IMG/VR virus record: IMGVR_UViG_3300020153_000001
Coordinates: 32,001 to 96,000 of that record
Source: a virus
Strand: one strand, 5' to 3'
DNA: 64,000 bases
A program made the translations under genes and the position numbers. Within the stretch, counting starts at the first letter, position 1, and each line of letters opens with the position of its first letter. This document shows positions 2,908-57,198 of the stretch, one piece after another. Under the pieces are notes generated by a model, which searched no databases, was not told the DNA's origin, and saw only the letters and a program-made list of their open reading frames with translations.

Positions 2908-2927
2908 TTTTGACTCCGGAGTCAAAA
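2908..2927. repeat. 20-bp palindrome TTTTGACTCCGGAGTCAAAA, copy 1
   Basis: Exact; extends to 26 bp (2905-2930); supplies the TGA stop of 2922..4319. Confidence 0.98.
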
Positions 2928-16500: not shown

Positions 16501-16543
16501 AGTTATTGATAGCGTTATTGAGTCTGTTGACATATGCGGACAT
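13541..16543 (-). CDS. 1000-aa hypothetical, probable internal virion protein
   Basis: Long ORF with poly-Q/Pro linkers; SD supplied by palindrome copy 3. Confidence 0.65.
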   Translation of the reverse strand: MSAYVNRLNNAINNLSNCPRPLIKESTDAGDIHKYYKIIVPPVKRDEIKPILDYFNPESSFFQRTAAAALLRVSGINPGAFPEDFVAQARDLIRKHPEIYSGNNLPPEFVDKFLGIVSRYYPHHPQLQPLADKIGEQLASRLGIQPPPYSRFNEIYRKLSTTPLPSPEATAANFFAKQIKESRQVDSGTWYYFLRSYLKGAAKQGRLDEACKVIFGGEFSDNVRQTYLRRLNSKLASIATALLPFTKQAQESVNDAWIELNLPEITLRELIAKAKAANVPDDAINFMVSHFIKQKYVESVDDKVPFKAIIDIINFLRGLDRYDGILKLAELINEKQPVDLNMTVGKLADELRISMEELSDVLPQDEYGKLLYTLEPYLALLQSLPKDQKASLGHVLVGQLLARPHVNQYVDKADASKLSKRAPNLSIAPGFTQDGVQEARTRRTDRRPEADQQPEADQQQQQQQAAREPAQNIPPHIKVLQQPPPKGLSPGVYKDEKTGRTFAVFPDGRVVTVQKTIDERLEESAQKHKEATSYYNQVMKNRDYKDYTRVIDTVYGKVSEDALKIADQWSDSYNWRRLGYDTFWDKADVIGIASRHFAKQDENGNQYVDGHSVRNAIGLIRLLQIQSSLGHEARHGPKGRASVENLVAQLKSIYSPEEWDKIKEAYNQITNRGTKVLDDYDIMLHGRSAAYPGASKDVDELFPGGNFGHEHDWWRKAWEERQKRTPLPFRDRSRDRQYAGENRVPIDPGIAERRRVREFLRGQRESLDDEFTVAQTRPTRPPASQSDTTQPDYGPPVYLLPENPTRQDLANYSAYIIRKQFATVGRGRFTPEFVDVVSKIVRDYQLGKIEYRDVVYALLASGTGGNMDYIHRVAGAILSGDVRNIPGKLSEGYYQMYSSLKRLSEGHKPPAPFDENVQSLPAPGRRSIYSAGGSQPPLVATQEVPPLVRTLSSRSSGVPPTRTAPQVNPPGQNIAQSGKRNDSFGTASVPLAGIETDLIA

Positions 16544-16544
16544 T

Positions 16545-16564
16545 TTTTGACTCCGGAGTCAAAA
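16545..16564. repeat. 20-bp palindrome, copy 3
   Basis: Exact; supplies both the TGA stop of the beta'-C gene and the SD of the next gene. Confidence 0.98.
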
Positions 16565-18412
16565 TTGCCTGGCCTGTTCGACAACACCCTTAGCCCATTG
16601 CTGAAGGGGTATACCTATTGCTTTAGCAGGAACAAAGCTTGTGCCGTAAATATCAGCCATAGAACCCTGTCTTACCGCCGATAGCAGCGCGCGTACCTGG
16701 TTCGAGCCAAACAGTCTGGTCATCCAGTTAGGATCAAATTCAAGCGTAGAAGCCGCACGGACCATGTATGGTTCAAACGGCGGCGGCTCGCTATGAACAA
16801 CGATGTCTTTTATACCAGCTTCCCTTAGCTCTTTAACGACAGACTGTTTGATCTTCGTACCTATGGTATAGTGCAACACGGGAACCTCTAAGTAATAGCC
16901 TATAGCGCTATCGACGGGCACCCTCATACTACCACGACGGGGCTTCCATCGCTTTACTATTTCGCCATACGGCACAATTTCGTCTAAATAAAACCCCCCA
17001 AACGGCTGGGTTATAACAACATGGTCGATAAGCCCACGTGCTAACAGCTCGACGTTTCGTCTATGTACCGGCTGACCAGCATCTCGCATGGCGTCGCAAA
17101 ACATCTTAACAAACGCGCGTCGACCTTCGCCTATTCCTTTTTGTCTCACTACCTCGGCAGGGTTAGGTAGCCCCTCCGTAATCATGTCACCGGCTTCTAC
17201 AGTATCGCCTTCTTTCACTATAGGAGGATGGCTAGGCGGCGAAAGATGCTCCACGTCGCCAACAACGATTTTCCATTGGCCGATCTCGTTTCTTGTGATG
17301 GACCGAACTTTACCATCAACCTGACTGTGTATTGCCCCGCCCACAAACGTCTTTGGGACGTTTAGCATCTGTTCGAGTACCTTAAAACCACTAAACTTCG
17401 TCACACCGCCCGTGTGCTTTGAGCTTATAGATGTTTGCGTTATTCGCTCTCCTATGGCCTGCGCCGCGGAAAGACCAGGTATGCTACCGATTTCAGGAAG
17501 TCGACCGTGTTCGCGTATACCAGCATCGACAGCATAGACGCCGTCAACTGCCGGGCTAGCAATAGGACTACGAACAACGATCTTTTTAATGCCGTCTTTC
17601 TTGAGGTCTTCGTATACCGCCGGAGTAATCTCTGTACCGGCTGGCCATCTTCCTGCAGGAAGGGCTAAGAATGCGCCGATATTGTCGGGGTCGTCTGCAT
17701 TTACCGGCAACCCTAACGGGTAAGGTAGCTTAGCCTTATGATCATGGCCTATGACAACTAATCTATGAGCCGCTCTGTTTAGAAGTTTTGAAAGATAACC
17801 GCTTCTGGCGACGCCCAGCTTAGAATCTGCTAGTCCCTTTCTTGCTCCGTAGCAAGCAGCCCAGAACTCTGCTGTCGGTACACCAGCTGAATAGCTAGAA
17901 AGGACAGGGAATGGTACAACTTCGCCAGCCCTGTCGAAATACGCCGTATCGCCCATAATAAGCCGCTTAAGCATTGCAGGATTGCCTCTGGCGCCGGAAT
18001 AGACGTGTTCATAGAATCGGTTATTCCGCGCCTTGGCCTCATCCATCGTCAATTGAAGCAGCGTTTGCGAATGGGCAAATATAGCTTCAGATATCTTTTT
18101 GCGCTTCTCGTCGTCTGGCAGATCGCTTCCCGCAATACGCTCAATATCTTTTAAGATGGCTGGACGGTAGGAATAAGAAGATGGGAGGGGCTTTAAGTCT
18201 TCAAGGGAAAAAGATGCGCCGTCGCTGGCTAGTAGCGCCTGGACCGCGAGCTGGTTAAGCCGCCTTGTAATTTGCCCGTACTTATCAGGATACTTCTTAG
18301 CAAGTTCGGCGTAGAAGCTATTTACAGACTTCTTCGTGAACTCCTCGGGCAGACTAAGGTCAGAAGGGAGAACTTCCGAGAGTAAAAGGCGGCCTACCGT
18401 AACCTGATTCAT
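16559..18412 (-). CDS. rpoC: RNA polymerase beta' subunit, C-terminal part
   Basis: TVGRLL, SGARGN, bridge helix GARKGLADSKLGVARSGYLSKLL, trigger loop AAQAIGERITQTSISSKHTGG. Confidence 0.92.
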   Translation of the reverse strand: MNQVTVGRLLLSEVLPSDLSLPEEFTKKSVNSFYAELAKKYPDKYGQITRRLNQLAVQALLASDGASFSLEDLKPLPSSYSYRPAILKDIERIAGSDLPDDEKRKKISEAIFAHSQTLLQLTMDEAKARNNRFYEHVYSGARGNPAMLKRLIMGDTAYFDRAGEVVPFPVLSSYSAGVPTAEFWAACYGARKGLADSKLGVARSGYLSKLLNRAAHRLVVIGHDHKAKLPYPLGLPVNADDPDNIGAFLALPAGRWPAGTEITPAVYEDLKKDGIKKIVVRSPIASPAVDGVYAVDAGIREHGRLPEIGSIPGLSAAQAIGERITQTSISSKHTGGVTKFSGFKVLEQMLNVPKTFVGGAIHSQVDGKVRSITRNEIGQWKIVVGDVEHLSPPSHPPIVKEGDTVEAGDMITEGLPNPAEVVRQKGIGEGRRAFVKMFCDAMRDAGQPVHRRNVELLARGLIDHVVITQPFGGFYLDEIVPYGEIVKRWKPRRGSMRVPVDSAIGYYLEVPVLHYTIGTKIKQSVVKELREAGIKDIVVHSEPPPFEPYMVRAASTLEFDPNWMTRLFGSNQVRALLSAVRQGSMADIYGTSFVPAKAIGIPLQQWAKGVVEQARQF

Positions 18413-18674
18413 GGTATCGAGCTAAGTCCTGATCCGATGGTTGTGCGGGAACAGACAACTGTGGCATAAACGGCTTGGCATCGATAACTTGCGTAGGAGC
18501 GCGTTCGGCTGGATAACCTGTCATTGACAGTACTTTTGGGAAATCAGCGCTTACGCAAGTATCGAATACAAGCACGTTTCCATTATCAAATCCTGCAGCC
18601 ACAGCGTTGCCGAATGTATCTAGTACGACAAACTTCTTACACTCTAACTCTTTATCGTCTATGATAATTTTCAT
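18360..18674 (-). CDS. Hypothetical protein
   Basis: 104 aa; overlaps the start of rpoC-C. Confidence 0.5.
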   Translation of the reverse strand: MKIIIDDKELECKKFVVLDTFGNAVAAGFDNGNVLVFDTCVSADFPKVLSMTGYPAERAPTQVIDAKPFMPQLSVPAQPSDQDLARYHESGYGRPPFTLGSSPF

Positions 18675-18721
18675 TGTGCTACACCAACTGTAAGTTTAAT
18701 TTGAAATGGCCGACGTTACGG

Positions 18722-18886
18722 CTATATCTTTGGAGCTTTAGTAGGTTTAACGTACTTTGGCATTACGGCACGCGCGGTACGCGCTGGCTGATTTGTCTTC
18801 TTCGCCTCTGATTCGGCACGACGAAGAAGATGCTTCAACGACAAAACGGGCCGTAGCGAGAAAAACTGTCTCTTTTTTCTAGCCAT
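18722..18886 (-). CDS. Small very basic protein (54 aa, below ORF-track cutoff)
   Basis: Manual translation MARKKRQFFSLRPVLSLKHLLRRAESEAKKTNQPARTARAVMPKYVKPTKAPKI fills an otherwise empty gap. Confidence 0.45.
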   Translation of the reverse strand: MARKKRQFFSLRPVLSLKHLLRRAESEAKKTNQPARTARAVMPKYVKPTKAPKI

Positions 18887-18904
18887 AGTTAAAGTCACCC
18901 TATT

Positions 18905-19678
18905 TTATGGCTGTATGCCGAATAGTGCGTGTGGTAACATCCAACCATACGTTGTTGGACTGCGCAGGATCATTTCGAGTTGTTGGTTATTAGCGGACAG
19001 CGCACTTGTAATAGCAGCCCTTGCAGTTTGCGCGTCCGCTAGCATGCGCTGCGCATCCTTACTACTCTTATTAGGTGTCGCCTGATATGCTATCCTGCTC
19101 GCTAAGTACGTGTTCAGTCTATCGTTTATCTTATTGCGGTCCGCGGGGTCGGATAGAGTCAAATGAGATAAAACCTTAACGGTCCGCGCAAACATCGCAT
19201 CGTCTAATGCGGTGTAGAATACGTTGAGCTCGTTGACGGTTTTATTCGACCGGAGTGCGCTACGAAGCAATTTCAAGTCGCCGTCTTGTATCGCTTCGTA
19301 GGTTTTCATATATAGCTCTGTCTCGTCACCATGACCTATCACATCCTTGAGCGAGCTGATGCCAGACGAGGCGGGCGGCTGCCTTGTAAGCCACGCTAGC
19401 TGACTAAACTCCTCAAGCTCTTTAAGCCCCTTAAGCTCATCAGCAGGTTCTGTCGGTTTCGAGTAGTTTAATAGAGAATATAAACCACCGCCCGCGGCAC
19501 CCAAAAGCCCGCCAAGCAAAGTCTTGCTTCTTTGGCCTGGAAACAGTAAATCAAGCAGGGCGCCTATCGCTAGACCGGCCCCACCGCCCAATAGGGCGGG
19601 CTTTGCAAATCTAGCTAACTCCTCCCAATCAAGGGCAAGCTTTGTAAAACTGTCGTTTGCAAAATCGTAGATTAGCAT
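18905..19678 (-). CDS. Glycine-zipper membrane protein
   Basis: LLGGGAGLAIGALL and LLGGLLGAAGGGLY helix pair after N-terminal FTKLA; GGAGG SD. Confidence 0.6.
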   Translation of the reverse strand: MLIYDFANDSFTKLALDWEELARFAKPALLGGGAGLAIGALLDLLFPGQRSKTLLGGLLGAAGGGLYSLLNYSKPTEPADELKGLKELEEFSQLAWLTRQPPASSGISSLKDVIGHGDETELYMKTYEAIQDGDLKLLRSALRSNKTVNELNVFYTALDDAMFARTVKVLSHLTLSDPADRNKINDRLNTYLASRIAYQATPNKSSKDAQRMLADAQTARAAITSALSANNQQLEMILRSPTTYGWMLPHALFGIQP

Positions 19679-19706
19679 ACCTTATCTGCCTCCTTATATA
19701 TGCATT

Positions 19707-20081
19707 CTATTTAGTAAACCATTTCTGTTGTATTGCTTTATACCAGTTCGCAAAGTTGACCTTTTCCCTCAACCCCGGCGACATCGCAGTTAACGCAAGA
19801 CCGCCTAACGCAAGAAGTATCGGCACAAACGGCTCTTTCGACACAAAAGAGCCAAGTACCGCCAATATAGTTGGCAATGTACCATAACCAGCGAGCTCGG
19901 TAGGCAACTGGCGTCGTAATTCCTGTTCCGCTGCAGCTCGTTGTTTGCTTACGTAATCACCAATTAAGTTGGTTAGCTCATCTGCTTTATCTTGTGGAAG
20001 TATACCAGCCAGCGTCTGGCGTATTTTACCAAGAGTATCTTGCTGTGCCTGTGCTTGCTTTGATAGTAGCCTTATGGACAT
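19707..20081 (-). CDS. Membrane protein
   Basis: Two C-terminal hydrophobic helices; GGAGG SD. Confidence 0.6.
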   Translation of the reverse strand: MSIRLLSKQAQAQQDTLGKIRQTLAGILPQDKADELTNLIGDYVSKQRAAAEQELRRQLPTELAGYGTLPTILAVLGSFVSKEPFVPILLALGGLALTAMSPGLREKVNFANWYKAIQQKWFTK

Positions 20082-20083
20082 GT

Positions 20084-20803
20084 CTATCCTCCGAATATCG
20101 ATTTCTTAATATCCGGCGGTATAGATGCCGTATTTTCGTTGGGCTGCGCCGTCTCAGGTGGCGGCGATAGTGCCGGAGTAGTTTGTTCTTTTTCCTTAGG
20201 CGACTGCCGTACTTCTTCCTTTTCTGTCAAGTATACCTCTTCGTCAGACAACGCGTCTGACGGTATTTTCAAATTCAGCGCGTCGTAGATGCCTACTAGC
20301 AGCTTCCTGACTTTTACGAGTTCTGTATAAAGCGTAGTCGGTGTAACTTCTGCTTTTTGCACCTTGGGTGTCTCTTCACGCTCTAGCTCTTCTTTTGGCT
20401 TGCCTTCCGGTTTTTCCTCGGGTTTGCCCTCAGGCGGAGGTTCAGGCGGAGGAGGAGGCATAGCACCGAGTAAACCCATTAACGAGCCAAGGTCACCAGC
20501 GCCGGCAATCGGCATTGGTCCACCCGGCCCGGGAGGCATCGCGCCAGGCGGACCGCCCATAGGAGGCCCACCCATAGGAGGCCCACCCATTGGTGGGGCG
20601 CCTGGAGGACCACCAGGAGGAGCCATGCCAGCCATATCCATTGGCGGCATGCCACCTGTAGGTGGGGGCATCATACCAGCAGCTGGATCCTGCCCCGCTT
20701 TGACCGGAGTAAAGCCGCGTTTTTCCATATCCTTCTGCAAGGCGTTCGATAAGTACATCGCAATGATTGATCTAGCGAGATCGTCGACGTTATATGTCGC
20801 CAT
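20084..20803 (-). CDS. Pro/Gly/Met-rich low-complexity protein
   Basis: GGPPM repeats, acidic central region, GGAG SD. Confidence 0.6.
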   Translation of the reverse strand: MATYNVDDLARSIIAMYLSNALQKDMEKRGFTPVKAGQDPAAGMMPPPTGGMPPMDMAGMAPPGGPPGAPPMGGPPMGGPPMGGPPGAMPPGPGGPMPIAGAGDLGSLMGLLGAMPPPPPEPPPEGKPEEKPEGKPKEELEREETPKVQKAEVTPTTLYTELVKVRKLLVGIYDALNLKIPSDALSDEEVYLTEKEEVRQSPKEKEQTTPALSPPPETAQPNENTASIPPDIKKSIFGG

Positions 20804-20814
20804 CTTTGTCTCCC

Positions 20815-21096
20815 TTATAGCTTTATGACTACACGTCGCTTGCCTTCCTGGTCGATTTCGCCGTTGTCGCTTAAGTATGCTGTATGTTCTTTTTCGGCTT
20901 CTTCGTCCTCTTCGCTGCTTCCAAACCAGTTTTTATACGCATACCAACCAAGCAAAGACAGTCCGGCTAGGCTAAGTACTACAGGCCAAAACGCAGAATA
21001 AGAAACTGTCGACGTGGTCGATGGCCCGGCGCTATTTGTCGCGGCGTTTGCTGTTGCACTAGCGGCCTGGCCGAGCTTTACGGCTTTATTTTTCAC
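20815..21096 (-). CDS. Single-pass membrane protein
   Basis: One TM helix followed by acidic stretch; GGAGG SD. Confidence 0.6.
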   Translation of the reverse strand: MKNKAVKLGQAASATANAATNSAGPSTTSTVSYSAFWPVVLSLAGLSLLGWYAYKNWFGSSEEDEEAEKEHTAYLSDNGEIDQEGKRRVVIKL

Positions 21097-21234
21097 TAGA
21101 CGCCTCCTTTACCGATTTCTTATTATATATTGTACCAGATAAAAGTCTTATGTTGGACAATCCGGTCTAATATATTTAGCCAGACGCTAATCTCCTCGGA
21201 ATCATTTGTAAGTAAAACGGGACGATCAATTTTC

Positions 21235-22866
21235 CTAAGGCTGGTATTTAAAAAAGCCTTTTGTCAAAATATCAATTATCGGCGTTGTATATGTTTTACT
21301 AAACTCGCTTTCAGGGATAGGCGGCTTATATCCATATCTCATTCGACGTATATTAATATACCCGTCGCCAAGTCTGCTGCGGCTGGGTCCGATTGTACGA
21401 AAATATGGAATTACGTCTTCTACAACCCAGTCAATCGGGGTCTTGACTACATCTGAACCGCCTGGCAGCAGCCCCGCGCGCTTAGCCGACTGAACAAGTG
21501 GATGGTCGTCAAGACCTTTTACATATCCAATGAAAGCTATACTAAACGCATCAGCCGCAATCTCGCTTACAGTCCTTTGTAGGGAGTTCTCGATAGGAAG
21601 CGGGTAATTCATACTATGCCCAAACTCGTGGGCGAATACAGGCAGCTTATCCGATGTTTCAATGGTGTGCGTGCGAGGGCGATAAGCGCCTAGTAATTCC
21701 GGTGGCGGTGATTTTACCGATAGTCCGGGAAACCTAGTACCGAACTTGTTGTATAGATGATTTAAAACTTCTCCTACTCTACTCCATTCTTCAGTTTTCA
21801 ATTGCACCCGGCGATCTACTATTGCTGACGCCGCTTCGACTTCGCCAAGTATCAACTCAAGTTCATCTAAGTCACTTTGCAAAATTGTAGACATATTTTC
21901 TGGCTTGACCGCCGTTGGGCTCTGTGCAATGCCGAGGCGCTCGCTAAGCCTCCTGAGTGGGCCGGGCAGTTTTGGTGTTCTGCTAATTTCTGGATACGTA
22001 TAAAGCTCAGCTACAACTGGGCGTTTTGAAGGAAACAAAGTACGAAGATGGGACATTTGGCTGTCGCCTGTAATGAGCCCCTTTACTACCTGCTGTGCTT
22101 GCTCTCGACCGAATCTTTTCGTGAGAAACTGTTTCAAACTGTCTATAGATTCGCCACCATGAACCACTCCAACAGCCAACGAAACGCGCGCCGGATCTGC
22201 GAGTATTCTTTTTACAGCAATCTGCCTCTCTGACGGATCAATATCGAACATATTTACAAAAGACTCAACAGCAGAACGCACTTCATCCGAAGTCATCTGG
22301 CTGATGACAGGAGCATATTTGTCGTGGAAGCTGCTTAGGAGATGCTGTGCGGCCACGTCCGCGACGCCAGGATAGAGCCTCATTGTCAAATCCATTACTA
22401 GCCTGTCTCTTAGCGTCGCGTCAAACCGCTGCCCACCAACTATAGACCTTACCTCTTCAGGATAAGATATTAGAATCGCAGACAAATAGCGCCCAGCTAG
22501 ATCATTTTTGGTCTTATCGTCAATGCTCGCCAGATAGGCGTTAAAATCGGGCTTATCCGATGAAAATATATGTTGCTGTACCGGCTTTGCCAGCAGCGAT
22601 CTGGCAAAGAATTCAAAATCAGGTCTGAAGCTAATTGCCGAACGGCCCAACAACGCGTGGTACGATCTGTCTAGCGGCGCTATTCCAATAGCTCGATTAA
22701 GAGCTGCTGCTAGGGGGTGCCCGAGAACGTCCGGAGTAGTCTTTACTTCAATAGGCTCAAACTCGCTATAACGCCCCGTTGCTGCAGAGTATGTCTTCTC
22801 AAGCGCGCGCTCTCCGGATAAAAGTTTCCTTAAGTATGTATATACGTTCGATACCGCGGCTGGCAT
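21235..22866 (-). CDS. Zincin metallopeptidase-domain protein (ImmA/IrrE-like motif), paralog 1
   Basis: FAHEFGH...SEIAADAFS; N-terminal region similar to 22985..24703. Confidence 0.7.
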   Translation of the reverse strand: MPAAVSNVYTYLRKLLSGERALEKTYSAATGRYSEFEPIEVKTTPDVLGHPLAAALNRAIGIAPLDRSYHALLGRSAISFRPDFEFFARSLLAKPVQQHIFSSDKPDFNAYLASIDDKTKNDLAGRYLSAILISYPEEVRSIVGGQRFDATLRDRLVMDLTMRLYPGVADVAAQHLLSSFHDKYAPVISQMTSDEVRSAVESFVNMFDIDPSERQIAVKRILADPARVSLAVGVVHGGESIDSLKQFLTKRFGREQAQQVVKGLITGDSQMSHLRTLFPSKRPVVAELYTYPEISRTPKLPGPLRRLSERLGIAQSPTAVKPENMSTILQSDLDELELILGEVEAASAIVDRRVQLKTEEWSRVGEVLNHLYNKFGTRFPGLSVKSPPPELLGAYRPRTHTIETSDKLPVFAHEFGHSMNYPLPIENSLQRTVSEIAADAFSIAFIGYVKGLDDHPLVQSAKRAGLLPGGSDVVKTPIDWVVEDVIPYFRTIGPSRSRLGDGYINIRRMRYGYKPPIPESEFSKTYTTPIIDILTKGFFKYQP

Positions 22867-22883
22867 GGATTATTAATGGCAAC

Positions 22884-22903
22884 TTTTGACTCCGGAGTCA
22901 AAA
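22884..22903. repeat. 20-bp palindrome, copy 4
   Basis: Exact; intergenic between zincin paralogs. Confidence 0.98.
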
Positions 22904-22984
22904 TTCTTGTTGGCTTATGGCCTAAAATCCGAAGTGTCACCAACGACATCATCACTTACTCATTTAGTTTGTGCTTTTTCTTAT

Positions 22985-24703
22985 CTATTCGCGATTATCG
23001 TTTTTAATAGTCGAGTGGGCTCGTTCCAAATCGTCGACGTTCGGCGCAAGCGGTCTGGCAAGGTCGCGCATTAACGGGCTTAGGAAGTTATCCGACCCTA
23101 TTACGCGGCCGAGCGAAGAGCGTCCAAGCTTCCTATACACAGAGATACTGACATCACCTAAAGCGCTTCGACTGGGGCCTGCGCGTTCTACATAAGGTAT
23201 GACGTCCTTTATCACCCAGTCAAAAAGGCCTGTTGTTTGTTTTGCCCCGCCCGGAAGCAAACCAGCGCGCTTGGCTAATATAACAAGCGGATGATCGTCC
23301 TTACCATACACGTATGCCGTTGCTGCTATCGAAAAGGCGTTAGCGATGATCTCCCCGACTAGATTCGTATAGTAATCGTTTTCTAGCGGACTACCCTCAA
23401 ACGAATAGGTCAGGCCGTGGGCGAGCTCGTGGAAAAACGTAGATAATTTTCTATCCATCATCAGCTTTCGTTCCCGCGGCAGGTAAAGACCTGCCGCGTC
23501 GGGCGTAGGCTCCTCCGGCGAAATCCCTGGCAGAGTTCCACCGAATCTTTCATATAAGTGTTTGACGACCTCTTCGGCTCGCGCCAGCTCTTTGTCCGAC
23601 AACGTTTTATCTTCAATCGCTACACCAATAAGTCCTAATGTCCCTGCTAGCTCTCCGTGAACTAGCTCAAGCCTTCCTACTTCTCTAACTCCATCCCTCA
23701 AATCTTCTAAATCTTTTATTGATACATCGAGAAACCATATTAGATTTTCTCTGGAAGGCTCTGTTATCGGTCTGCCGTATTGCGGTCTTATTCTCGTTTG
23801 TGGTAACGCAAGAATTTCCGTGACAAGTCCGCGACCTTCTCTAGGTGTCGAATAAAGCGGCCTGACGCGCTCACTTGCTCTGCCAGCGGTAAGCCCGCGC
23901 ATGATGGACTTGATCTGCTCATCATCTACTTTGCCAGCTAGGAAATCCTTTAACTGATCAATAGAGTAGCCTCCGCTTGCTACCACTGCTGCTAGGGTAG
24001 TTCGTCTTGGGCTTAGTAGTATCTGCGATATGGCTTTTTCCCTATCCTTGCCGCTAATACCAAACATGTCAACATACTTTTCGGCAAGCAAGCGTTTATC
24101 CGCCGGGCTCATTTGATTAACGATAGGGCCGAATATTCTGTAATATTCGTCTGCCAACTGGTCGGCGGCGATGTCAGCTACACCAGGATAAAGATGAAAG
24201 ATAAGCTTTAAGAACAAGGTATCTCTTAGCGCGTCGTTAAATGGTAATCTTCCTATTATTTCCCGCTCTTTTTCTGGCGTACGCGCGAACAGGTGGCTTA
24301 GGAAACGACCGGCCAAACTGGCACGTACGTTAGGGTCAACGCTCGCTAAGAATTTAGAAAAATCTGGATTTTCGGAAAGAAGATACCTTCTGACAGGCTC
24401 GTCTAGGGCTTGTACAGCCTCTCGTCTGAACTTATCGTTGAACGTAAGGATTGATTTACGTTTTAGTTCTTCGTAAGTAGGCGTTAGCGCTTGTATTCCA
24501 GTAACTCTTGTTGTAGCGGCCTCTAACGGCGTAAGGTACGACGGCAAATACGTGGGTAATATAGCATTAGCTGCAGAATATTCCTTGGGACGGCCAGTTA
24601 GGGCAGAATAAGTAGAAGCCGGACCGGTAGGTTCCGGCTTACCTGACAGTAGTTGCTTCAGCTGGTTATAGACATAGCCTATAGGACCACCGTTACCATT
24701 CAT
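22985..24703 (-). CDS. Zincin metallopeptidase-domain protein, paralog 2
   Basis: FFHELAH...GEIIANAFS; shares LYPGVADIAA and YSALTGR blocks with paralog 1. Confidence 0.7.
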   Translation of the reverse strand: MNGNGGPIGYVYNQLKQLLSGKPEPTGPASTYSALTGRPKEYSAANAILPTYLPSYLTPLEAATTRVTGIQALTPTYEELKRKSILTFNDKFRREAVQALDEPVRRYLLSENPDFSKFLASVDPNVRASLAGRFLSHLFARTPEKEREIIGRLPFNDALRDTLFLKLIFHLYPGVADIAADQLADEYYRIFGPIVNQMSPADKRLLAEKYVDMFGISGKDREKAISQILLSPRRTTLAAVVASGGYSIDQLKDFLAGKVDDEQIKSIMRGLTAGRASERVRPLYSTPREGRGLVTEILALPQTRIRPQYGRPITEPSRENLIWFLDVSIKDLEDLRDGVREVGRLELVHGELAGTLGLIGVAIEDKTLSDKELARAEEVVKHLYERFGGTLPGISPEEPTPDAAGLYLPRERKLMMDRKLSTFFHELAHGLTYSFEGSPLENDYYTNLVGEIIANAFSIAATAYVYGKDDHPLVILAKRAGLLPGGAKQTTGLFDWVIKDVIPYVERAGPSRSALGDVSISVYRKLGRSSLGRVIGSDNFLSPLMRDLARPLAPNVDDLERAHSTIKNDNRE

Positions 24704-24739
24704 CGGGAAAACCTCCTTTTTGTTAAAGATAGGTAACTA

Positions 24740-25816
24740 CTATTTTGACTCCGGAGTCAAAGATTTTTGGGCCCTGCTACCTAAAGCCCGAATTATGGGG
24801 TCAAGCAGTCTTCCTAATCCGCCTCGCGGCCTATCGTTTCCGAATTTATCCATAAACTCCTTCACCTTCTTATAAGTGTTCGCTCTTTCCGGATACCAAC
24901 TTATCCAATGCTGCGCCAACCATCTATCCGGAATAGTGCCGCTATATCCCAGTACGGCTAGAGACGGCGGAACAAATTTCTTAGAAATCGGGAAATCCGG
25001 TACGGCTTCTTTTAAGGCCTTCCATTCTGGCCAATCTGGTTCCGGCAGCCAACCGGCGCTTACTGCCATCACGACAGGCCATGTCAGCTTATTGTTATAG
25101 TAGTCGAGAACTGCGGCGGCAAACGTGTTTGCGCCAATTTCATTTATAGTACGCCATATCGTTACCATCGAAGCCAGCCTTGGGTCTCTTACCATAACAT
25201 AAGGCTGATCTTCGTCACCCTGCAGACCAAAGTAGTCAAAAATACTTTTAGCCATGAGCGTATCCAACGAGTGTCCTAACTCGTGGGCGATAACGGCTGT
25301 TCCTTTAGGCGTTGCCATGACATCTGGATCGATGATCAGCTTACCTGTGAGTGCGTTAAATCCACCCAACAAGGAGGGCTGTCTACCGACTTCGGCTGAT
25401 GTGATATATGGCATGGCTCGAAGTGCGGCATAATCTAGAATCTGCTTAACCTTTGCCGTATCAACCAACCTTCCGCCGCTTGTAGCTGCATTGAGCGCTT
25501 GCCACAAACGCTCCTCGGATTCGGTTTGCGCCCTACCTATCGGGGAGGAAAAAAATGCCGGTGCAGAAGAACTAGCGTCTTCGGGCATAATACTATGTAG
25601 TTTGGCAACCATTTTTGTTACCGGACCGCGCAACTCCTGTTCTTCCTGATAACGAATGTCTTTTATAGTAGGACCATATTCCGACCATTGATACAGACTA
25701 TTTAATAGGTCAACATTATGTGCCCGTTGTTCGTGGTGATGTGTAACGGGGGGTTCTTTGCTTTGGGCGTTTTTTAGCAGGTTTTGTAGATCATTAACGG
25801 CTCGTTTGCAGATCAT
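24740..25816 (-). CDS. Zincin metallopeptidase-domain protein, paralog 3
   Basis: IAHELGH...NEIGANTFA; ends LTPESK-stop. Confidence 0.7.
   Translation of the reverse strand: MICKRAVNDLQNLLKNAQSKEPPVTHHHEQRAHNVDLLNSLYQWSEYGPTIKDIRYQEEQELRGPVTKMVAKLHSIMPEDASSSAPAFFSSPIGRAQTESEERLWQALNAATSGGRLVDTAKVKQILDYAALRAMPYITSAEVGRQPSLLGGFNALTGKLIIDPDVMATPKGTAVIAHELGHSLDTLMAKSIFDYFGLQGDEDQPYVMVRDPRLASMVTIWRTINEIGANTFAAAVLDYYNNKLTWPVVMAVSAGWLPEPDWPEWKALKEAVPDFPISKKFVPPSLAVLGYSGTIPDRWLAQHWISWYPERANTYKKVKEFMDKFGNDRPRGGLGRLLDPIIRALGSRAQKSLTPESK
24743..24762. repeat. 20-bp palindrome, copy 5 (19/20)
   Basis: TTTTGACTCCGGAGTCAAAG; encodes the last residues of 24740..25816. Confidence 0.95.
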
Positions 25817-25832
25817 CTTTCTAGGTCCTAAG

Positions 25833-28800
25833 TTATTTCTCGATTATCTTTATTGGCTGGTCTATAGCAATTTCTCCTCTAGCAAACGCGGCAAGCGCGT
25901 CTTTTTTCGTTTTAAATATTTTTACTGGTTTACGGCTATCGACGCGACTAGCATACCATAGGCCGATGAGATAGTCTTGTTGGGGGGTATAAACAGGCTC
26001 TGCAAATATGGCTGCTTTGAATAGATTCTTCGACGGTAGCAATTTATCGTAGGCTTCCTTGACGGCGTCGTCGGATGCGGGTACATGGAATTGCATCGTA
26101 TCGCCGTCGAAGTCAGCGCCAAAGGCCTGTGTAATAAGAGGGCTTATCTCTATGGTTTTACCCGGTATAAGAACGGGTCGAAACGCCATAATTCCGTACT
26201 TGTGAAGCACGGGCGCGCGGTTTACTACAACAGGCCGCTCTTGGATAACACGTTCCAAAGACTGCTTAGCATAGGGATGGCGCTCATTAACAAGCATATT
26301 CGCCACTAGAAACGGCGAAGCACGTAACGCTGGCGGAACGTTACGAAGCACGCTATCAGGAAGGCCGCGATGCATTAGGTCGCGAATAATAAACGGCTTA
26401 TACGCGACCCAAGCCGCCTCCTCGGGAATACCTATCTCGTCAATATCTAAAGAACTGTTCGGCGTAATGACTGCCCTACCAGCCAGCGTGGCACTAATAC
26501 CAAGCATTTTTCTCTGCATTATGCTGGCTTTCGGGCTGGAACCAACCACGGTAGCCAGCAAACCCTTAATACCCTGCTTCTTCAGGGCGTAGCTATGTGG
26601 ATCGTCTAGGCCTGTAAGCCCGTAAAAGATGGACATGAGCGATCTTCGCTCTTCCCGTAGATCGCTAATATCCGAGGCCAGTTCTTTATAAGCGCCGATG
26701 AAGTCGATGAGCTCTTTATAAAGATAGTTCGCATCATTAACGACAAGCGTGCCGTCTTTAATCATCGAGATAGGTCGAAAGATGGGCGGAATGACTGGAA
26801 CTTTGGTCCAAAATAGCTCGGACGGGTGGATACTAAAGCGTTTGAGGCCTTCAAGGTAGTTTAGCTTTTTGATAAGCGACGACCGTTTCGATGGCGTAGC
26901 AGTTTGGAGTTCTTCCCTGGTACGCGTTATTTCTCTATCGACGTCATAGTTTTTAAATAGTTCATAAAGCGCCATCGGACCGGATATAGGCCCTTTTGAT
27001 TGACGATACCGTTCAGGTATGGGAAGCTCGCCAGCAAATATGCTAATGAGGTCCTTCTCGCTTACGCCAATCAATCTACCAAGCAGTTCCACCATGATTG
27101 GGTTTGGAACCGGCTCTGGTAGCTTGATGGCGCTCCACCGCGTGCCAGCTAGACCTCCGGTAAGACCGTCGTCAAACAGCCCACCCTCTACCGTTCGGAA
27201 ACCGTCGCTATAGACACGAACTGTCTCGGAGTTCTGAACATATCGGTTACCCGCTAGTTGATCTATATCTTTATCTCGAAGCGCAAGAAGCCGTATACCA
27301 GAACGTTCTTGGATGGGGTTAATCCCTGCCCCTCTAAGCAAGGCGACAAATTTGTGCCATATATGCGGGATCTTGGGCTGCGGTAGGCTGTGGCCAGTCA
27401 TAAATTGTCGCCATGCCTCATCGTTCGCTTGTCCGCGGATAAGTGCGGCATCGGTTATTGTGTTGTACGCGCCGTGCGCCAACAGCGCGTTAAGCTCAAG
27501 GATCCCCAACCGTTTGGCTTTTCCCGATTCACCAACAGTGGGGATATCTTCTGCGCTTGCAGCAATAGCCTCGTCTACGGCCTGAAGCTTATCTTCTGCA
27601 ATATGGCACAGGCGCAGAATATATCCATAGCCTGTAAGCGCGCGTATTTTTCTACCCGTAACGGGATCTGTGAGCACTTCTGTATCGCTAACACCATGCT
27701 TCTTTAGCACGTCAGAAACGTATTGATGCAGCCTGTCGGCGTGTTCAAAATCCTTTACATAGATTGGCTTTCCTATCTTCTTAGCAACCTTCCCTAGAAG
27801 TGCTTCATATATTTGACCAATATTAGCCCGCGAAATAATAAACGGCGACGCGATGATATCGACAGGCTTGCCATCTTCGCCTATGGGCATCTGGCTATCG
27901 GGTTTAATGATAACGACGCCTTTATTTCCATATAGCCCCGCAATCTTATCTCCTTGTTGGGTCTCGAATATCGACTTTACGATAGCAACAATGCCCTCTT
28001 TTGTCTTACCAGCCGCTATTACTATCCCAGGCGCGTCATAGTCCCACGTAACGCTGTCATCAACAAACATCTTGTGGGAAGCTCTAGCGGTGGTGATAGG
28101 AAGCATCTTGGCACTAAGAATAATCGGCTCGCCCTTACGGAGAACCGTTCCTGGCCGCGCCACGCCCTCGTTAGTATACTTCTCTAAGTCCTCAGCGGTC
28201 ATTTTGCCAGGAAATAGCGACACGTAAGCCTGTTTTCCGCTAGGCTCTGCTGTTTGGTGCTGATAGACAAAAAGATTCTCGGCAGACAGTTTGCGCGCAA
28301 ATGACTGTGAGATAACGAAAGCGTCTTCGTATGTATCGCCGGTAGCCATATAGGCAATCTTTGCGTTTGTTCCCACCGCAAGATTGCCGTTTATATCGGT
28401 AAAATTGCTATAAGCCAAAAGCTGGCCAGGCTTTACGACATCGCCAGGCTTTACAAGCGGCTCGTTATATAAAGCCGTCTGCCTGGCATAAGGCGTATTG
28501 TTGTGCAACCAGATCTTCTTTGTGCTTCGGCTGTCAGCGTCATAAAGCTCGATAAAATCGGGAGTTACTTTGCGTACGACCCCCTTATATGGGCTATAAA
28601 CGGCACCAGCGTATTTTCCAAATATTGATACAAACGGTCTTCCACGGCTATCAACCGATTGCACTAAAGGCGCTTCTCTGTTTATGATGGGCAATGCTTG
28701 CGTAATAAATCGGCTTCCCATCGCCACGCGCTGCGGGAAGCAGGCGCTTTTCATGGGGATAAGTGACGCAAGCGGACCAAAGATATGCGTTGCATCCTTG

Positions 28801-30191
28801 ATGTAATGCGTTATTTTTTCCCTTGGTACGAAGAGCTCGTAGCCTTTTGATATTGCACGAACGTAACGACGACCGCTTTCTAGCTCGCCAGGGAACGCTA
28901 TCGTAACGTCCTCTACTTGATCCGATCTTAGCCAAGTCTCCTTATTTGTCTTTGCGTCGATGACTGGAATATAAAGAAGGCCGTCCGATCCTCGTCTTGC
29001 CGAGATTGTCATCCTTGTTTCTACCCCTACTTTGAGGGATTCTGGGGTAGTAACAGGGTCGATAAATCCTAGCTGCGTAGCATGGACGTCCCTGGCAGAA
29101 GATGGGATGGCCTCTACGGCGCCTATACCACCCTCCCCCATTCGTGTAAGACGGAAGGCGTGGTCAAGGATTTCGACGGGGTTGATCTCGGCTGGCGCCA
29201 TCACAAGCCCAGAAGCGCGAATTACATGATCAACGATAGGCTGGGCTGGTCTTGGCGGTATGATCTCTTTTTTGGGATTACGCATGGCCTTCCAGAGGAT
29301 ATTTCTTAAAATGAGGCGCATCTTTGCAGGGACGTTTTCGGCAAAGATATCCTCTGGACCAAGGAACTGCTGGTTGGCCAAAGAGTCTCTATCGTCTTCT
29401 CTGGCCTTGCCTTGGAGAAGCTGGATCATCTTGGCTGTAGCTGCTAGCGCCGCGCGTTTGTCGACATAGTTCTGCATTAGCCCTAAGTTGCGGCGCATCA
29501 CGTCCTGCGCTACAGGAACTTGCAAGAACTCGCGCGCAAGATCTACATCCGTAGAGCCAAACATTCTTTTGGCAAAACGCCGCGCATCTTCTACTTTCTC
29601 TGTTACATTGCGTGCCAGAAGATCAGCACCCCATGCTTGCCTTAGCTCTTCATCAGTTACTCCGATAGCTCTTAGAATAGGATAAAGCCGAAACTTCGCC
29701 TGTCCTGCTTGTATGTAGAATATGCCTGTCGTAGGGTCGAGTACGTAACGATGGGTTTTGCCGGCTGGGAGGTTGATGAAAGCCTCCGGCTCCCCTGTCT
29801 GACGGAACCGGACGTAGACGCCAGGTTTTAGCCGTTGTTGGTTCGTAATGGAATACTCAACGCCGCCTATAACAAAGACGCCTCGGTCGGTAAGATAGGG
29901 AACTTTGGCAAGAAGTGTGCGTTTCTCGATAACGCCTGATGGCGTTGTTATTCGTATCGTTCCATAAAGATCCCGCGCCAGTGTGCTGTTTGTGATAATG
30001 GCGCGCTTGTGATTAATAGGGCTTAAGATTTCTTCTTCTGGTTCCTTGTCTTTATATTCCACGTCTTTTAGCTCGATAGTCCAGTTACCCTGGCTATAAG
30101 AAGGCGTGGAAATAAAAGAATTACGGACAGCGTCGAAGATACGCTGCCGTATCGTCTTAACATCGGCAATATCGATAAGCTCGCCAGTCAT
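25833..30191 (-). CDS. rpoB-rpoC: RNA polymerase beta subunit fused to N-terminal part of beta' (includes catalytic loop)
   Basis: Beta motifs GVFVIGGVEY, TPES..VG, YEDAFVIS, GDK..GLYGNKG, RLGILELNAL; then beta' motifs GGLFD, PVIPPIFRP, GRAVI, NRAPVLH, GADFDGD. Confidence 0.95.
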   Translation of the reverse strand: MTGELIDIADVKTIRQRIFDAVRNSFISTPSYSQGNWTIELKDVEYKDKEPEEEILSPINHKRAIITNSTLARDLYGTIRITTPSGVIEKRTLLAKVPYLTDRGVFVIGGVEYSITNQQRLKPGVYVRFRQTGEPEAFINLPAGKTHRYVLDPTTGIFYIQAGQAKFRLYPILRAIGVTDEELRQAWGADLLARNVTEKVEDARRFAKRMFGSTDVDLAREFLQVPVAQDVMRRNLGLMQNYVDKRAALAATAKMIQLLQGKAREDDRDSLANQQFLGPEDIFAENVPAKMRLILRNILWKAMRNPKKEIIPPRPAQPIVDHVIRASGLVMAPAEINPVEILDHAFRLTRMGEGGIGAVEAIPSSARDVHATQLGFIDPVTTPESLKVGVETRMTISARRGSDGLLYIPVIDAKTNKETWLRSDQVEDVTIAFPGELESGRRYVRAISKGYELFVPREKITHYIKDATHIFGPLASLIPMKSACFPQRVAMGSRFITQALPIINREAPLVQSVDSRGRPFVSIFGKYAGAVYSPYKGVVRKVTPDFIELYDADSRSTKKIWLHNNTPYARQTALYNEPLVKPGDVVKPGQLLAYSNFTDINGNLAVGTNAKIAYMATGDTYEDAFVISQSFARKLSAENLFVYQHQTAEPSGKQAYVSLFPGKMTAEDLEKYTNEGVARPGTVLRKGEPIILSAKMLPITTARASHKMFVDDSVTWDYDAPGIVIAAGKTKEGIVAIVKSIFETQQGDKIAGLYGNKGVVIIKPDSQMPIGEDGKPVDIIASPFIISRANIGQIYEALLGKVAKKIGKPIYVKDFEHADRLHQYVSDVLKKHGVSDTEVLTDPVTGRKIRALTGYGYILRLCHIAEDKLQAVDEAIAASAEDIPTVGESGKAKRLGILELNALLAHGAYNTITDAALIRGQANDEAWRQFMTGHSLPQPKIPHIWHKFVALLRGAGINPIQERSGIRLLALRDKDIDQLAGNRYVQNSETVRVYSDGFRTVEGGLFDDGLTGGLAGTRWSAIKLPEPVPNPIMVELLGRLIGVSEKDLISIFAGELPIPERYRQSKGPISGPMALYELFKNYDVDREITRTREELQTATPSKRSSLIKKLNYLEGLKRFSIHPSELFWTKVPVIPPIFRPISMIKDGTLVVNDANYLYKELIDFIGAYKELASDISDLREERRSLMSIFYGLTGLDDPHSYALKKQGIKGLLATVVGSSPKASIMQRKMLGISATLAGRAVITPNSSLDIDEIGIPEEAAWVAYKPFIIRDLMHRGLPDSVLRNVPPALRASPFLVANMLVNERHPYAKQSLERVIQERPVVVNRAPVLHKYGIMAFRPVLIPGKTIEISPLITQAFGADFDGDTMQFHVPASDDAVKEAYDKLLPSKNLFKAAIFAEPVYTPQQDYLIGLWYASRVDSRKPVKIFKTKKDALAAFARGEIAIDQPIKIIEK

Positions 30192-30194
30192 TGT

Positions 30195-31262: not shown

Positions 31263-31608
31263 GATAAATGTGATAGTTTTTCCGTTCGTCGTCCCAGTGC
31301 CGCTCTACAAAGATCTGTCGGAACCAACCATTTGCAATCCTGTCTTGTACCCACTGGTACGCTTTACGATCATCTTCATTAGACAAATCAAAAAGATCGT
31401 GCCGCCAATCAGCGACAAGCGTCGTATACTCGTAAATCTCGTTCAGGTCAAGCTTAGGAAGTACGTTTGAAGACCTTAGACGTAGCGGTAGACCGAACGG
31501 CATGAACTGCCAGTAAAGATAGCCGTTATGCCGTTCGTCTTGCTCACCGGCGTACTTATAGATTGCCGCAGGACGCTGACCTGTAAACGTCTGCTGTAGA
31601 TTGGACAT
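31207..31608 (-). CDS. Hypothetical protein
   Basis: 133 aa, aromatic-rich globular sequence. Confidence 0.6.
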   Translation of the reverse strand: MSNLQQTFTGQRPAAIYKYAGEQDERHNGYLYWQFMPFGLPLRLRSSNVLPKLDLNEIYEYTTLVADWRHDLFDLSNEDDRKAYQWVQDRIANGWFRQIFVERHWDDERKNYHIYLEWAQLYSELTKDASHFT

Positions 31609-56031: not shown

Positions 56032-56390
56032 CTCGTAGATTCCCTTCCTTCTACCGCAAAGTCGTCGACTATAGTCTTGGTAAACATCGGCAGCCGCGTC
56101 GATAAATTGCTAGAAATAATAAACGCCCTGCTAGGCGTTAGGTTCCTCAATAAAAACGCCCTATACATCGCAAGACTGTAGGCAGACTTCAACTGAGCCG
56201 TTATCATCTTGCCATCGCTAGCGCGTCGTTCTTGTAACACCTCAGCCGGTGTTTTGCCAGAGGCTTGTTTAAAGACGTTATATGCGCTTTCTCCACCATC
56301 GTTTAAAGATATATCTTCAGGAACAAACCAATCACTAGCGCCGTTACTGACGCTAATCATTTCCGACCACATATCGAATATATCAGACAC
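56028..56390 (-). CDS. Hypothetical protein
   Basis: 120 aa, coupled on both sides. Confidence 0.55.
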   Translation of the reverse strand: MSDIFDMWSEMISVSNGASDWFVPEDISLNDGGESAYNVFKQASGKTPAEVLQERRASDGKMITAQLKSAYSLAMYRAFLLRNLTPSRAFIISSNLSTRLPMFTKTIVDDFAVEGRESTR

Positions 56391-57198
56391 TGTATTTTCC
56401 TTTCTGTAACTGATACCAATACTTGATCCGCTCTTCTATCTCGGCAATACGCTGACTAACCCTACCAGGGCTTAAGTGCAGCTTTTCTGCTATCTCTTTC
56501 TGCGGCGTTTTATTTCTGCCGTGAAGCCCGTAATAGAGCTCTATAATCGCCTTGTCAATTGGATCAGCATCTATGTAAGCTAGCTCAAGCAGCTGCGTAA
56601 AGGCATCCGTCGTGGCAAGCGGAGAAGTAGGGATTTCAGATATTCCCTCCGCCGTTTGTCTGACAGTAGTAGCTTCGGGTAGTGCCATCCTGCCCTTTTG
56701 TCGTATTTTCTTTATCCTTTCAATGGAAAGACCCGTGTAGTCCGCCAATTCTTCCGTATTTGGTAGCCTGCCCAGCGTCTGCACTAGCTCCTCTTCAGCG
56801 TTATTAAGCATAGTAATATCCATCGACACCTGCTCTGACTGCCGTATTATCTGTCTTGTCTGGCCGCCAAGTCGCTTCAGGCGTTGTAAATTTAGGAAAA
56901 CATGGTTAGTTAGGGGGCCTTTAGATGGATCGTAAGATTTAATAGCGTCTATGACTAGTTTTTTGGCCCTCGTCCGAAGACTGGGCGTGTCGGCTATATC
57001 GGCGGCGTAGTAGTGAATGGCATAGTCTAGTAGACTATTCATTTTATCGACCAAAGCCGTCATGGCATCCGGTGACTTTGTCTTAACCCAGCTTTCGTAC
57101 AGGGGAATATACTCTTCTTCCTTAAATTTGTATTTCGATCCTGCCTGACCTGTTTGCCTTCTTTCTAGAATAATATCTAATAGCGACCTTTCCAGCAT
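56383..57198 (-). CDS. Sigma-70-family sigma factor (FliA/WhiG-like)
   Basis: Region 2 AIKSYDPSKG..TNHV, region 3 LGRLPNTEELADYTGLSIERI, region 4 PQKEIAEKLHLSPGRVSQRI. Confidence 0.85.
   Translation of the reverse strand: MLERSLLDIILERRQTGQAGSKYKFKEEEYIPLYESWVKTKSPDAMTALVDKMNSLLDYAIHYYAADIADTPSLRTRAKKLVIDAIKSYDPSKGPLTNHVFLNLQRLKRLGGQTRQIIRQSEQVSMDITMLNNAEEELVQTLGRLPNTEELADYTGLSIERIKKIRQKGRMALPEATTVRQTAEGISEIPTSPLATTDAFTQLLELAYIDADPIDKAIIELYYGLHGRNKTPQKEIAEKLHLSPGRVSQRIAEIEERIKYWYQLQKGKYSV

Follow-up and report, generated by a model that had tools for sequence, protein, structure and literature searches.

Background

Both fusion and splitting of the large subunits β and β′ are known among multisubunit RNA polymerases (RNAPs). 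Helicobacter and Wolbachia possess full-length RpoBC fusions, and the RNAP of cyanobacteria and plastids, which has α and ω, carries the equivalent of β′ as two chains, γ (RpoC1) and β′ (RpoC2). The single-chain RNAP that phage N4 delivers from its virion is unrelated to the enzyme described here. Among phages, the phiKZ/AR9-type RNAPs function without α or ω, have β′ split after its double-psi barrel and include one set that is packed in the virion (PMC7598289); the jumbo-phage RNAP reviews of 2020, 2021 and 2026 cover only this type. Here we describe a different partition in a 64,000-nucleotide stretch of viral DNA (the window), which comprises bases 32001-96000 of the 135,539-bp linear IMG/VR record IMGVR_UViG_3300020153_000001 (CheckV completeness 94%). 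In it, the complete β subunit and the N-terminal half of β′ form one polypeptide (β-β′N), and the C-terminal half of β′ (β′C) is encoded separately, 7.4 kb away. A preliminary description of the stretch, made from the sequence alone, had proposed this arrangement; the observation is confirmed and its core interpretation is supported by the analysis reported below.

The first of the two phage chains resembles the cellular fusions in that the C-terminus of β runs into the N-terminus of β′, following the rpoB-rpoC gene order. The cellular fusions differ in holding the whole of β′ in one chain, in keeping the zinc ribbon and in working with α and ω. Likewise, the cyanobacterial and plastid enzymes have β′ cut after the double-psi barrel, but their β is a separate chain and their cut lies about 50-70 residues further on than that of the phage; the preliminary description was right to place the two cuts near each other, although they do not fall at the same residue. 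In the phiKZ/AR9 enzymes β is also split (giving four to five chains), nothing is fused, the sequences are far more divergent, and each genome has two sets and no sigma-70 homologue, whereas the genome studied here has β in one piece, a single set and a recognisable sigma. At 25-30% identity to bacterial β and β′ over nearly the full length, the phage enzyme is also far closer to bacterial RNAPs than is the phiKZ type. The crAss-like two-barrel RNAP and the tape-measure-fused RNAP of P23-45 likely share with it, as does the N4 enzyme, a strategy in which the polymerase arrives together with the DNA and the early genes can dispense with the host enzyme; however, these two are extremely divergent and lack a sigma, and in contrast to the virion-delivered single-chain RNAPs the present enzyme is a near-complete bacterial core.

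A bacterial-like RNAP, often encoded beside a sigma gene, has been reported in the Caudoviricetes termed mReC phages; that paper mentions no fused or split mReC polymerase, the table rows examined show β and β′ as separate, unsplit proteins of about 890 amino acids (aa) or more, and the filters are matches of at least 800 aa each and an NADxDGD motif (Weinheimer & Aylward 2020, PMC7481178). By our inference, these filters would exclude the present family, and judged against the table rows and filters we reject mReC membership for this phage, as its β is fused, its free β′ piece measures 617 aa and its motif reads GADFDGD. The mReC-like layout, unfused and unsplit, is seen in Cobetia phage Carin-5 (a sigma, a β′ of 1083 aa and a β of 927 aa) and in Rhizobium phage RHph_TM30 (a β′ of 1127 aa).

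The closest cultured counterpart is Salmonella phage Arash (OQ632216), which has, like the window, a fused β-β′N open reading frame (ORF), a separate β′C, an orthologous sigma and a location of these genes in the structural module; identity is about 30% for chain 1 and about 25% for chain 2. Arash differs in possessing a further sigma, gp196, and in encoding an SNF2 helicase beside β′C; the present genome has neither. Vibrio phages D69, D148 and D181 belong to the same family and share its architecture. The Arash paper lists gp206 and gp216 as β and β′ and mentions neither fusion nor split (PMC10585845), and none of the papers citing Arash concerns transcription. We found no description of a β-β′N/β′C partition in the literature searched, subscription journals lying outside that search. 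Phage-encoded bacterial-type RNAPs are a known kind and members of this family are already in GenBank, but a description of the architecture was not found; the preliminary description's concern that a characterised phage family might already show it is borne out only weakly, in that a cultured phage has the layout and its paper does not describe it.

Domain architecture of the two chains

Chain 1 (P0001, 1452 aa) is encoded by a single ORF at 25833..30191 and chain 2 (P0002, 617 aa) by one at 16559..18412; both are on the minus strand, as are the features of the two chains located below, and both run uninterrupted from ATG to stop. P0001 contains the Pfam domains Rpb2_3 and Rpb2_6 of β followed by Rpb1_1 and Rpb1_2 of the N-terminal half of β′, as had been read from its motifs in the preliminary description, and P0002, which begins at the TVGR motif, contains Rpb1_5. 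In phmmer searches of Protein Data Bank (PDB) sequences, both chains matched bacterial β and β′ only, and no solved structure of this RNAP family was found among them.

The subunit boundaries were mapped onto Escherichia coli RNAP with a profile (A1) built from 36 family members. Residues 33-196, 256-748, 753-850 and 861-981 of P0001 correspond to E. coli β 54-228, 419-932, 1049-1148 and 1211-1337, with E. coli β ending at 1342 and its lineage-specific insertions missing from P0001. Profile alignment to E. coli and cyanobacterial β delimits a β portion of residues 1-965 (27297..30191), which aligns to positions 34-1049 of the 1100 in cyanobacterial β. P0001 1065-1449 matches E. coli β′ 160-550, the whole β′ part covering approximately 20-552, and chain 2 resumes almost where chain 1 ends: P0002 3-345 corresponds to β′ 571-948 and P0002 362-490 to β′ 1152-1286, the SI3 insertion being absent. 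The cut between the chains drops only about 17 E. coli residues (β′ ~552-569), a loop. Chain 1 extends for about 88 residues beyond the DFDGD motif and does not, therefore, end immediately behind it.

Both double-psi barrels consequently reside in chain 1, and the bridge helix, trigger loop, jaw and C-terminal part of the clamp in chain 2. The β barrel is recognised by Rpb2_6 (E 1e-38) and aligns to E. coli β 1049-1148; its lysine motif, located by profile alignment, lies at 27915-27953, and the catalytic lysines K749 and K757 are invariant in the 36 family members, as are the Mg-binding aspartates D1360, D1362 and D1364 of the catalytic site GADFDGD (P0001 1358-1364, 26100..26120). In chain 2, the bridge helix (17753..17848) aligns to E. 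coli β′ ~769-805 and the trigger loop (P0002 313-337, 17402..17476) to β′ ~911-948 and then 1152, without SI3 and with the catalytic His kept. An AF2 model of P0001 745-1452 has a predicted local distance difference test score (pLDDT) of 72 and a predicted template-modelling score (pTM) of 0.50, with domain-to-domain placement too uncertain for the geometry of the junction to be assessed; the best structural match of the modelled C-terminal part of chain 1 is the cyanobacterial γ subunit. P0001 and P0002 thus make up the full complement of large subunits in a multisubunit RNAP of bacterial type that the phage encodes and whose partition is fixed and non-canonical. We regard the two-chain, intact architecture as virtually certain, and with it the earlier proposal of a bacterial-type phage RNAP holding both barrels in one chain, which the Pfam domains and the conservation across the family bear out.

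The junction of the fusion (27264..27332), from the last conserved β motif to the first conserved β′ segment (E. coli β′ ~20), has essentially no linker, according to both sequence reading and alignment with hidden Markov models (HMMs). Downstream of it, the alignment places the site of a deleted β′ N-terminal zinc ribbon at 27120..27185: the approximately 30 residues that bear C70, C72, C85 and C88 in E. coli are reduced to a short Gly-rich turn, no Cys occurs in P0001 976-1090, and the β′ N-terminal region is shortened from about 160 to about 100 residues. At the second zinc site, the positions of E. coli C814, C888, C895 and C898 are occupied by His, Ser, Tyr and Asp in P0002. Neither of the two zinc sites of a bacterial-type core is present, and the two chains together contain four cysteines in 2069 residues. 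Furthermore, the otherwise universal NADFDGD motif reads GADFDGD in this phage; Gly is found in 95 of 120 family members and Ala in Arash, whereas the Asn is kept by all the cellular sequences examined. This Asn contacts the ribose of the incoming nucleoside triphosphate and helps reject deoxynucleotides. Ile and Ser stand in place of E. coli Met932 and Arg933 in the trigger loop, whose catalytic His is retained. The rifampicin-pocket region of β has also diverged.

The sequence record itself was checked against Logan assemblies of two public runs, in which positions 16000-30500 form one contig at about 20x with 0 differences and 0 gaps. These runs, of nearly equal size and labelled hot springs and sediment, may be the source sample. 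The 'joints' reported in them are only 24-base matches at a repeated palindrome. There is no frameshift or mis-join at the RNAP genes, which settles a doubt raised in the preliminary description.

Conservation of the layout in a large phage family

Full-length fusions with 31-83% identity to P0001 were recovered from five viral contigs. The distance from the fusion gene to β′C varies widely, from 1.1 kb (G005), 3.6 kb (G002) and 4.8 kb (Arash) through 7.4 kb in the window to 13.3 kb in G001, a relative made complete by direct terminal repeats (DTR) whose chain 1 is 83% identical, and about 48 kb in G004. In a collection of 5.8 billion proteins, 1257 clusters match P0001 900-1452 at E<=1e-10; the best 120 of these all possess the fused domain set and are mostly ~1420-1490 aa long, the longer ones containing inteins. 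From the same collection 648 clusters match P0002, typically with 603-670 aa. In the longer forms (more than 100 clusters) β′C still starts at residue 1 and is followed or interrupted by inteins or a C-terminal extension of 470-1300 aa. Among the 80 genome loci that were classified by ORF and HMM, the HMM boundaries are alike in L001-L006, L018-L024 and L028, with chain 1 ending at about profile position 1450 and chain 2 starting at profile positions 1-4. A tblastn search of 50,697 phage records gave near-full-length matches in Salmonella phage Arash and in Vibrio phages D69, D148 and D181; in Arash the fusion is gp206 (1525 aa) and β′C is gp216 (606 aa; OQ632216). The fused-and-split layout is a conserved trait of a very large phage family.

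The C-terminal extensions of β′C (P0241-P0360; L018:15969-19601) mostly have no Pfam match, with DUF5661 or AAA-type kinase domains in some, and they show no similarity to the 1000-aa ORF at 13541-16543 of the window. In many members both RNAP genes are interrupted by inteins (Intein_splicing, LAGLIDADG, Hint and Hom_end_hint domains; for example P0007, P0009, P0053, P0130 and P0211). A homing-endonuclease gene breaks the fusion genes of Vibrio phages D148 and D181, and in L020 an HNH endonuclease gene (15419-16078) directly precedes β′C.

Origin of the fused-and-split layout

Unsplit, full β-β′ fusions also occur in phage-like contigs, namely L030 (2023 aa), L025 (2420 aa), L026 (2318 aa) and, in part, L029. 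L026 and L030 are read as phage contigs since in L026, as in Arash, a portal gene immediately precedes that of the polymerase, and L030 has another gene in common with the present genome. Fusions of ~2505-2530 aa are also found in metagenome-assembled genomes (MAGs) of Ratteibacteria, Omnitrophota and Vermiphilus (L031, L033-L036, L038, L039), and the genome loci scan showed ordinary, separate rpoB and rpoC genes in candidate-phyla bacteria and others. The relationships were examined in a tree of 41 rows and 1806 columns (IQ-TREE, LG+C20+F+G4 by posterior mean site frequencies, PMSF) obtained by a short search, with supports from the Shimodaira-Hasegawa-like approximate likelihood ratio test (SH-aLRT) only; its rows were hand-picked from the loci found and include 19 of about 60 cellular loci.

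In this tree the 12 split enzymes fall on one side of a branch (SH-aLRT 94) and are sister to the unsplit L030 and L025 (SH-aLRT 99), and the cellular rows, the ~2510-aa fusions included, form one clade (SH-aLRT 100). The phylogeny that the preliminary description had suggested as a check therefore sets the split family on a branch of its own, apart from the cellular enzymes. L026 is placed between the split/unsplit phage group and the cellular clade, and Carin-5 on a very long branch. A single clade of all 15 phage fusions was not rejected by an approximately unbiased (AU) test (log-likelihood difference 2.6, p 0.19).

Quite apart from the tree, L030 and L025 share the linker-less junction and the zinc-ribbon deletion with the split family, and the junction, judged from the alignments, is a shared derived feature of these groups. 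L026 also lacks the ribbon, which the cellular fusions retain. Because this junction also characterises the unsplit fusions of the sister phage contigs, the fusion is likely to have preceded the split. Assuming a root on the cellular side, the most economical history is one in which a phage ancestor would have undergone the rpoB-rpoC fusion together with ribbon loss; a later, single cut of β′ would have fallen at an inter-domain hot spot after the barrel; and the two genes would then have been free to drift apart. The crowding of inteins and homing endonucleases around these genes is consistent with, but no demonstration of, the longer-standing view that such splits are the work of mobile elements (PMC7598289).

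As they keep the zinc ribbon and lie inside the cellular clade, the Ratteibacteria, Omnitrophota and Vermiphilus fusions look like an independent cellular rpoBC fusion event beyond those of Helicobacter and Wolbachia. In a further locus, L041:13061-16845 of a MAG contig labelled Gammaproteobacteria, a separate rpoB precedes two non-adjoining ORFs for β′, of 728 aa and 467 aa; the β′ gene is possibly split here too, or else interrupted.

Proposed assembly without α and ω

No match to PF01000, PF01193 (α) or PF01192 (ω) was obtained in six-frame searches of the whole 135.5-kb genome at E<=1, under which all 14 of 14 control genomes gave a match; the absence of α and ω first noted for the window hence extends to the complete record. 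PF01000 and PF01193 are also without a match in two DTR-complete relatives, two partial relatives and the complete Arash genome. Similarly, a six-frame scan with both family profiles detects only the two known RNAP genes, from which it follows that the genome has one polymerase set.

Three neighbouring ORFs were considered as stand-ins for the missing subunits and rejected. The 133-aa ORF at 31207-31608 has no PDB match at E<=0.001; it is conserved upstream in six relatives, its model reaches a pLDDT of 81 and it yields faint tail-terminator/neck-like rows, and we take it for a virion part. The ORF of ~255 aa after the fusion gene in L003, L006, L018 and L020 consists of Pro/Met/Gly-rich repeats and has no Pfam match. 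For the 1000-aa ORF at 13541-16543, just after β′C, searches of Pfam, PHROGs and the Atlas yielded no relative. Likewise, the other genes lying between those of chain 1 and chain 2 match nothing in Pfam or PHROGs. The repeat protein (PPMDP type, ~250 aa) is encoded right after the fusion gene in these four relatives (L006:14364-15128, L003:14371-15141, L018:14428-15141 and L020:14379-15200), and no homologue of it is present in the window.

We propose that the covalent link between β and β′N replaces the platform that the α dimer provides for assembly, such that the core would consist of two polypeptides, and we lean slightly towards an enzyme that works without host α. The principal alternative is a hybrid, in which the phage provides the catalytic subunits and the sigma, and its chains need the α dimer of the host and perhaps its ω. 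All cellular RNAPs need α, as is well established (reviewed in PMC7598289), the α-binding surfaces could persist given the 25-30% identity to the bacterial subunits, and for Arash virions a test for host proteins is not reported (PMC10585845). On the other hand, relatives have been isolated on Salmonella and Vibrio, and family contigs are binned with Planctomycetota, Methylococcales and Aquaspirillum; with hosts so different, a fixed dependence on the α of each would be demanding. Moreover, α-less cores do exist in the phiKZ and AR9 enzymes (PMC7598289), and a covalent β-β′ link removes the main job of α. We therefore hold the hybrid to be unlikely, with an α-independent two-chain core remaining the preferred reading.

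Probable virion delivery

Around the RNAP genes are homologues of structural proteins of Arash: window 2922-4319 is related to gp222 and 9315-11555 to gp218. The block comprising β′C and the genes for proteins of 746, 260 and 448 aa is syntenic in L003 and L006, in Arash, L005 and L026 the gene for the polymerase is immediately preceded by a portal gene, and the sigma gene adjoins a gene for a baseplate-wedge-like protein. Mass spectrometry of Arash virions recorded 3516 spectra for gp206, the most of any protein and with 100% coverage, 1210 for gp216 and 467 for the sigma gp10 (PMC10585845). By analogy, virions of the present phage would contain the sigma and the two chains, which would enter the cell with the DNA. 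With such delivery, early transcription, and perhaps the transcription of all phage genes, would not need the host polymerase. That the polymerase is virion-borne in this phage seems to us reasonably likely.

Alternatively, the polymerase might be made only after infection, with the host RNAP reading the early genes and the phage enzyme confined to middle or late transcription. The virion data come from Arash alone, and its authors allow that abundant infection-phase proteins might co-purify with particles (PMC10585845). Yet gp206 tops the virion spectral counts and the sigma accompanies it (PMC10585845), the RNAP and sigma genes are inside the structural module both in this genome and in its relatives, and the single polymerase set speaks against an enzyme that acts only after infection. 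This alternative we consider about as unlikely as the hybrid, and virion delivery is retained as the better account.

Directly after β′C, Arash encodes an SNF2-family helicase, gp217 (L001:26055-27473), which recalls the RNAP recycling factor RapA; it is abundant in virions, with 1148 spectra (PMC10585845). No SNF2 domain was detected in the genome of the window.

A sigma factor and candidate regulatory motifs

The window encodes a sigma-70 family factor of 271 aa at 56383..57198 on the minus strand, recognised by Pfam Sigma70_r3 and Sigma70_r4, which is the only clear sigma of the genome. Pfam misses region 2, a region-2-like stretch being visible by eye in the family alignment. A search of the 50,697 phage records with this sigma gave Arash gp10, its orthologue, as the sole match; the downstream order is also alike, with two small genes followed by the baseplate-wedge-like gene. 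The two complete relatives and a 71%-complete one (G001, G005 and G004) each have a homologue, and none was found in the 34% and 42% fragments; in L022 the homologue lies 9 kb from the polymerase gene.

In bacterial RNAP, the clamp helices are the main docking site of sigma, the flap tip docks sigma region 4 and the zinc ribbon also contacts sigma. The clamp helices of the phage enzyme (26808..26939), a coiled coil of conserved length, align gap-free to E. coli β′ ~260-310 in the family profile, and the flap-tip region of β is about 8 residues shorter there than in E. coli. A complex model of the sigma with P0001 990-1452 passed our mark with an ipSAE of 0.47, the best of three controls scoring 0.00. 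That mark is reached by 58 of 80 solved complexes and by 2 of 110 mismatched pairs, and scores of 0.60 or less comprise only 7 of those 80 complexes together with both mismatched pairs. At least 68% of contacts are common to the runs, and the partner pLDDT is at least 67. The modelling that had been proposed for this pair hence yields a pass, but a weak one, which may only reflect a memory of the sigma-β′ complexes already solved. In light of these observations, we consider it probable that this lineage-specific sigma is the partner of the polymerase; it would bind the retained clamp helices and direct the enzyme to phage promoters.

A competing view is that the sigma redirects the host core, in the manner of T4 gp55 and SPO1 gp28, and that the phage RNAP uses some other, unrecognised initiation factor. 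Sigma factors acting on the host enzyme are known from many phages that have no RNAP of their own (PMC7598289), and chain 1 is altered at the zinc ribbon and in part of the flap tip. Against this, the only match of the sigma in 50,697 phage records is a sigma found in Arash virions, it co-occurs with the polymerase in each complete relative checked, the clamp helices are retained, and the complex model passes, if weakly, against its best control. This view is improbable in our estimate, more so than either the hybrid or the post-infection alternative, and a sigma dedicated to the phage polymerase is the preferred assignment.

The weakest alternative, that the layout stems from a frameshift, from chimeric assembly or from decay into a pseudogene, or that protein trans-splicing rejoins the two chains, is of negligible probability: inteins and homing endonucleases are indeed common in the RNAP genes of the family, yet an artefact is already refuted by the identity of the Logan re-assembly to the record, by identical boundaries in cultured phages as well as in independent assemblies numbering in the hundreds, and by the detection of Arash gp206 as a protein with 100% coverage, and trans-splicing is rejected because the end of chain 1 and the start of chain 2 lie directly in conserved β′ sequence, with no surplus residues at either chain end and no room for split-intein halves.

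Two recurrent motifs were observed in the 135.5-kb genome. The first, TTTTAGCTA, is confined to the gene-sense strand, with 9 occurrences there; its sites, on the minus strand, include 57227, 57343, 58782, 37737, 35062 and 34996, with others elsewhere in the genome. The sites are intergenic, and most directly follow a hairpin rich in GC and its T-run and precede a start codon by 15-30 bases, an arrangement that recurs in G001. As a candidate, the motif might serve the polymerase as a phage promoter or as a combined terminator-promoter module. The second, TTTTGACTCCGGAGTCAAAA, is a perfect palindrome found at 16544-16563 and at 17 more sites in the window, with 30 in the genome. It occupies gene junctions, very often directly before a start codon, as in the 15-base gap between the β′C stop and the next ORF, and its GGAG could act as a hairpin-held ribosome-binding site. 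One palindrome site in G001 reads GATTCCGGAATC, a symmetric double change by which the palindrome is preserved.

Overall model and implications

Taken as a whole, the explanation we favour, with some reserve, is a two-chain core that arose by fusion and then a split, assembles without α, is partnered by the phage sigma and is packed in the virion. Of its inferred components, the sigma partnership carries the most confidence, followed by virion delivery and then by the dispensability of the α platform. Several points weigh against this explanation. The complex model supports the sigma partnership only weakly, Pfam does not recognise sigma region 2, and the flap-tip region is some 8 residues shorter. 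Packaging in the virion is measured only in Arash, a relative of about 30% identity, whose report does not describe host α in the virion or on the enzyme (PMC10585845). The absence of α rests on Pfam profiles, which could miss an analogue similar in fold only. Finally, the order of events assumes a root on the cellular clade, in a tree with a short search and several long branches.

A bolder form of the model, which we advance tentatively as a possibility short of our favoured explanation, is a sigma-dependent holoenzyme of three polypeptides, devoid of α, ω and zinc, that would be carried in the virion, be ejected along with the DNA and carry out all transcription of a phage of 100-250 kb; the β-β′ link would substitute for the α platform, and the Asn-to-Gly change, at the contact to the sugar of the nucleotide, would mark an altered substrate check.

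To our knowledge, every cellular RNAP joins its two large subunits by means of an α-type platform, and the only known exceptions are the phiKZ and AR9 enzymes. Those enzymes are so divergent that they reveal little about the bacterial one, whereas the present family is 25-30% identical to it and keeps a sigma-70-type factor. By our inference from its filters, the published phage RNAP survey would have removed a lineage that may be larger than its own. Structural studies, and possibly transcription in vitro, could draw on the family for a polymerase that is compact and bacterial-like. It has dropped α, ω and both zinc sites and re-cut its chains, yet stays bacterial-like; and since Arash, on Salmonella, and the Vibrio phages are in culture, the dispensability of α, the roles of the zinc sites and of the active-site Asn, and the packing of a two-chain, 2000-residue enzyme into a capsid and its passage into the cell become testable.

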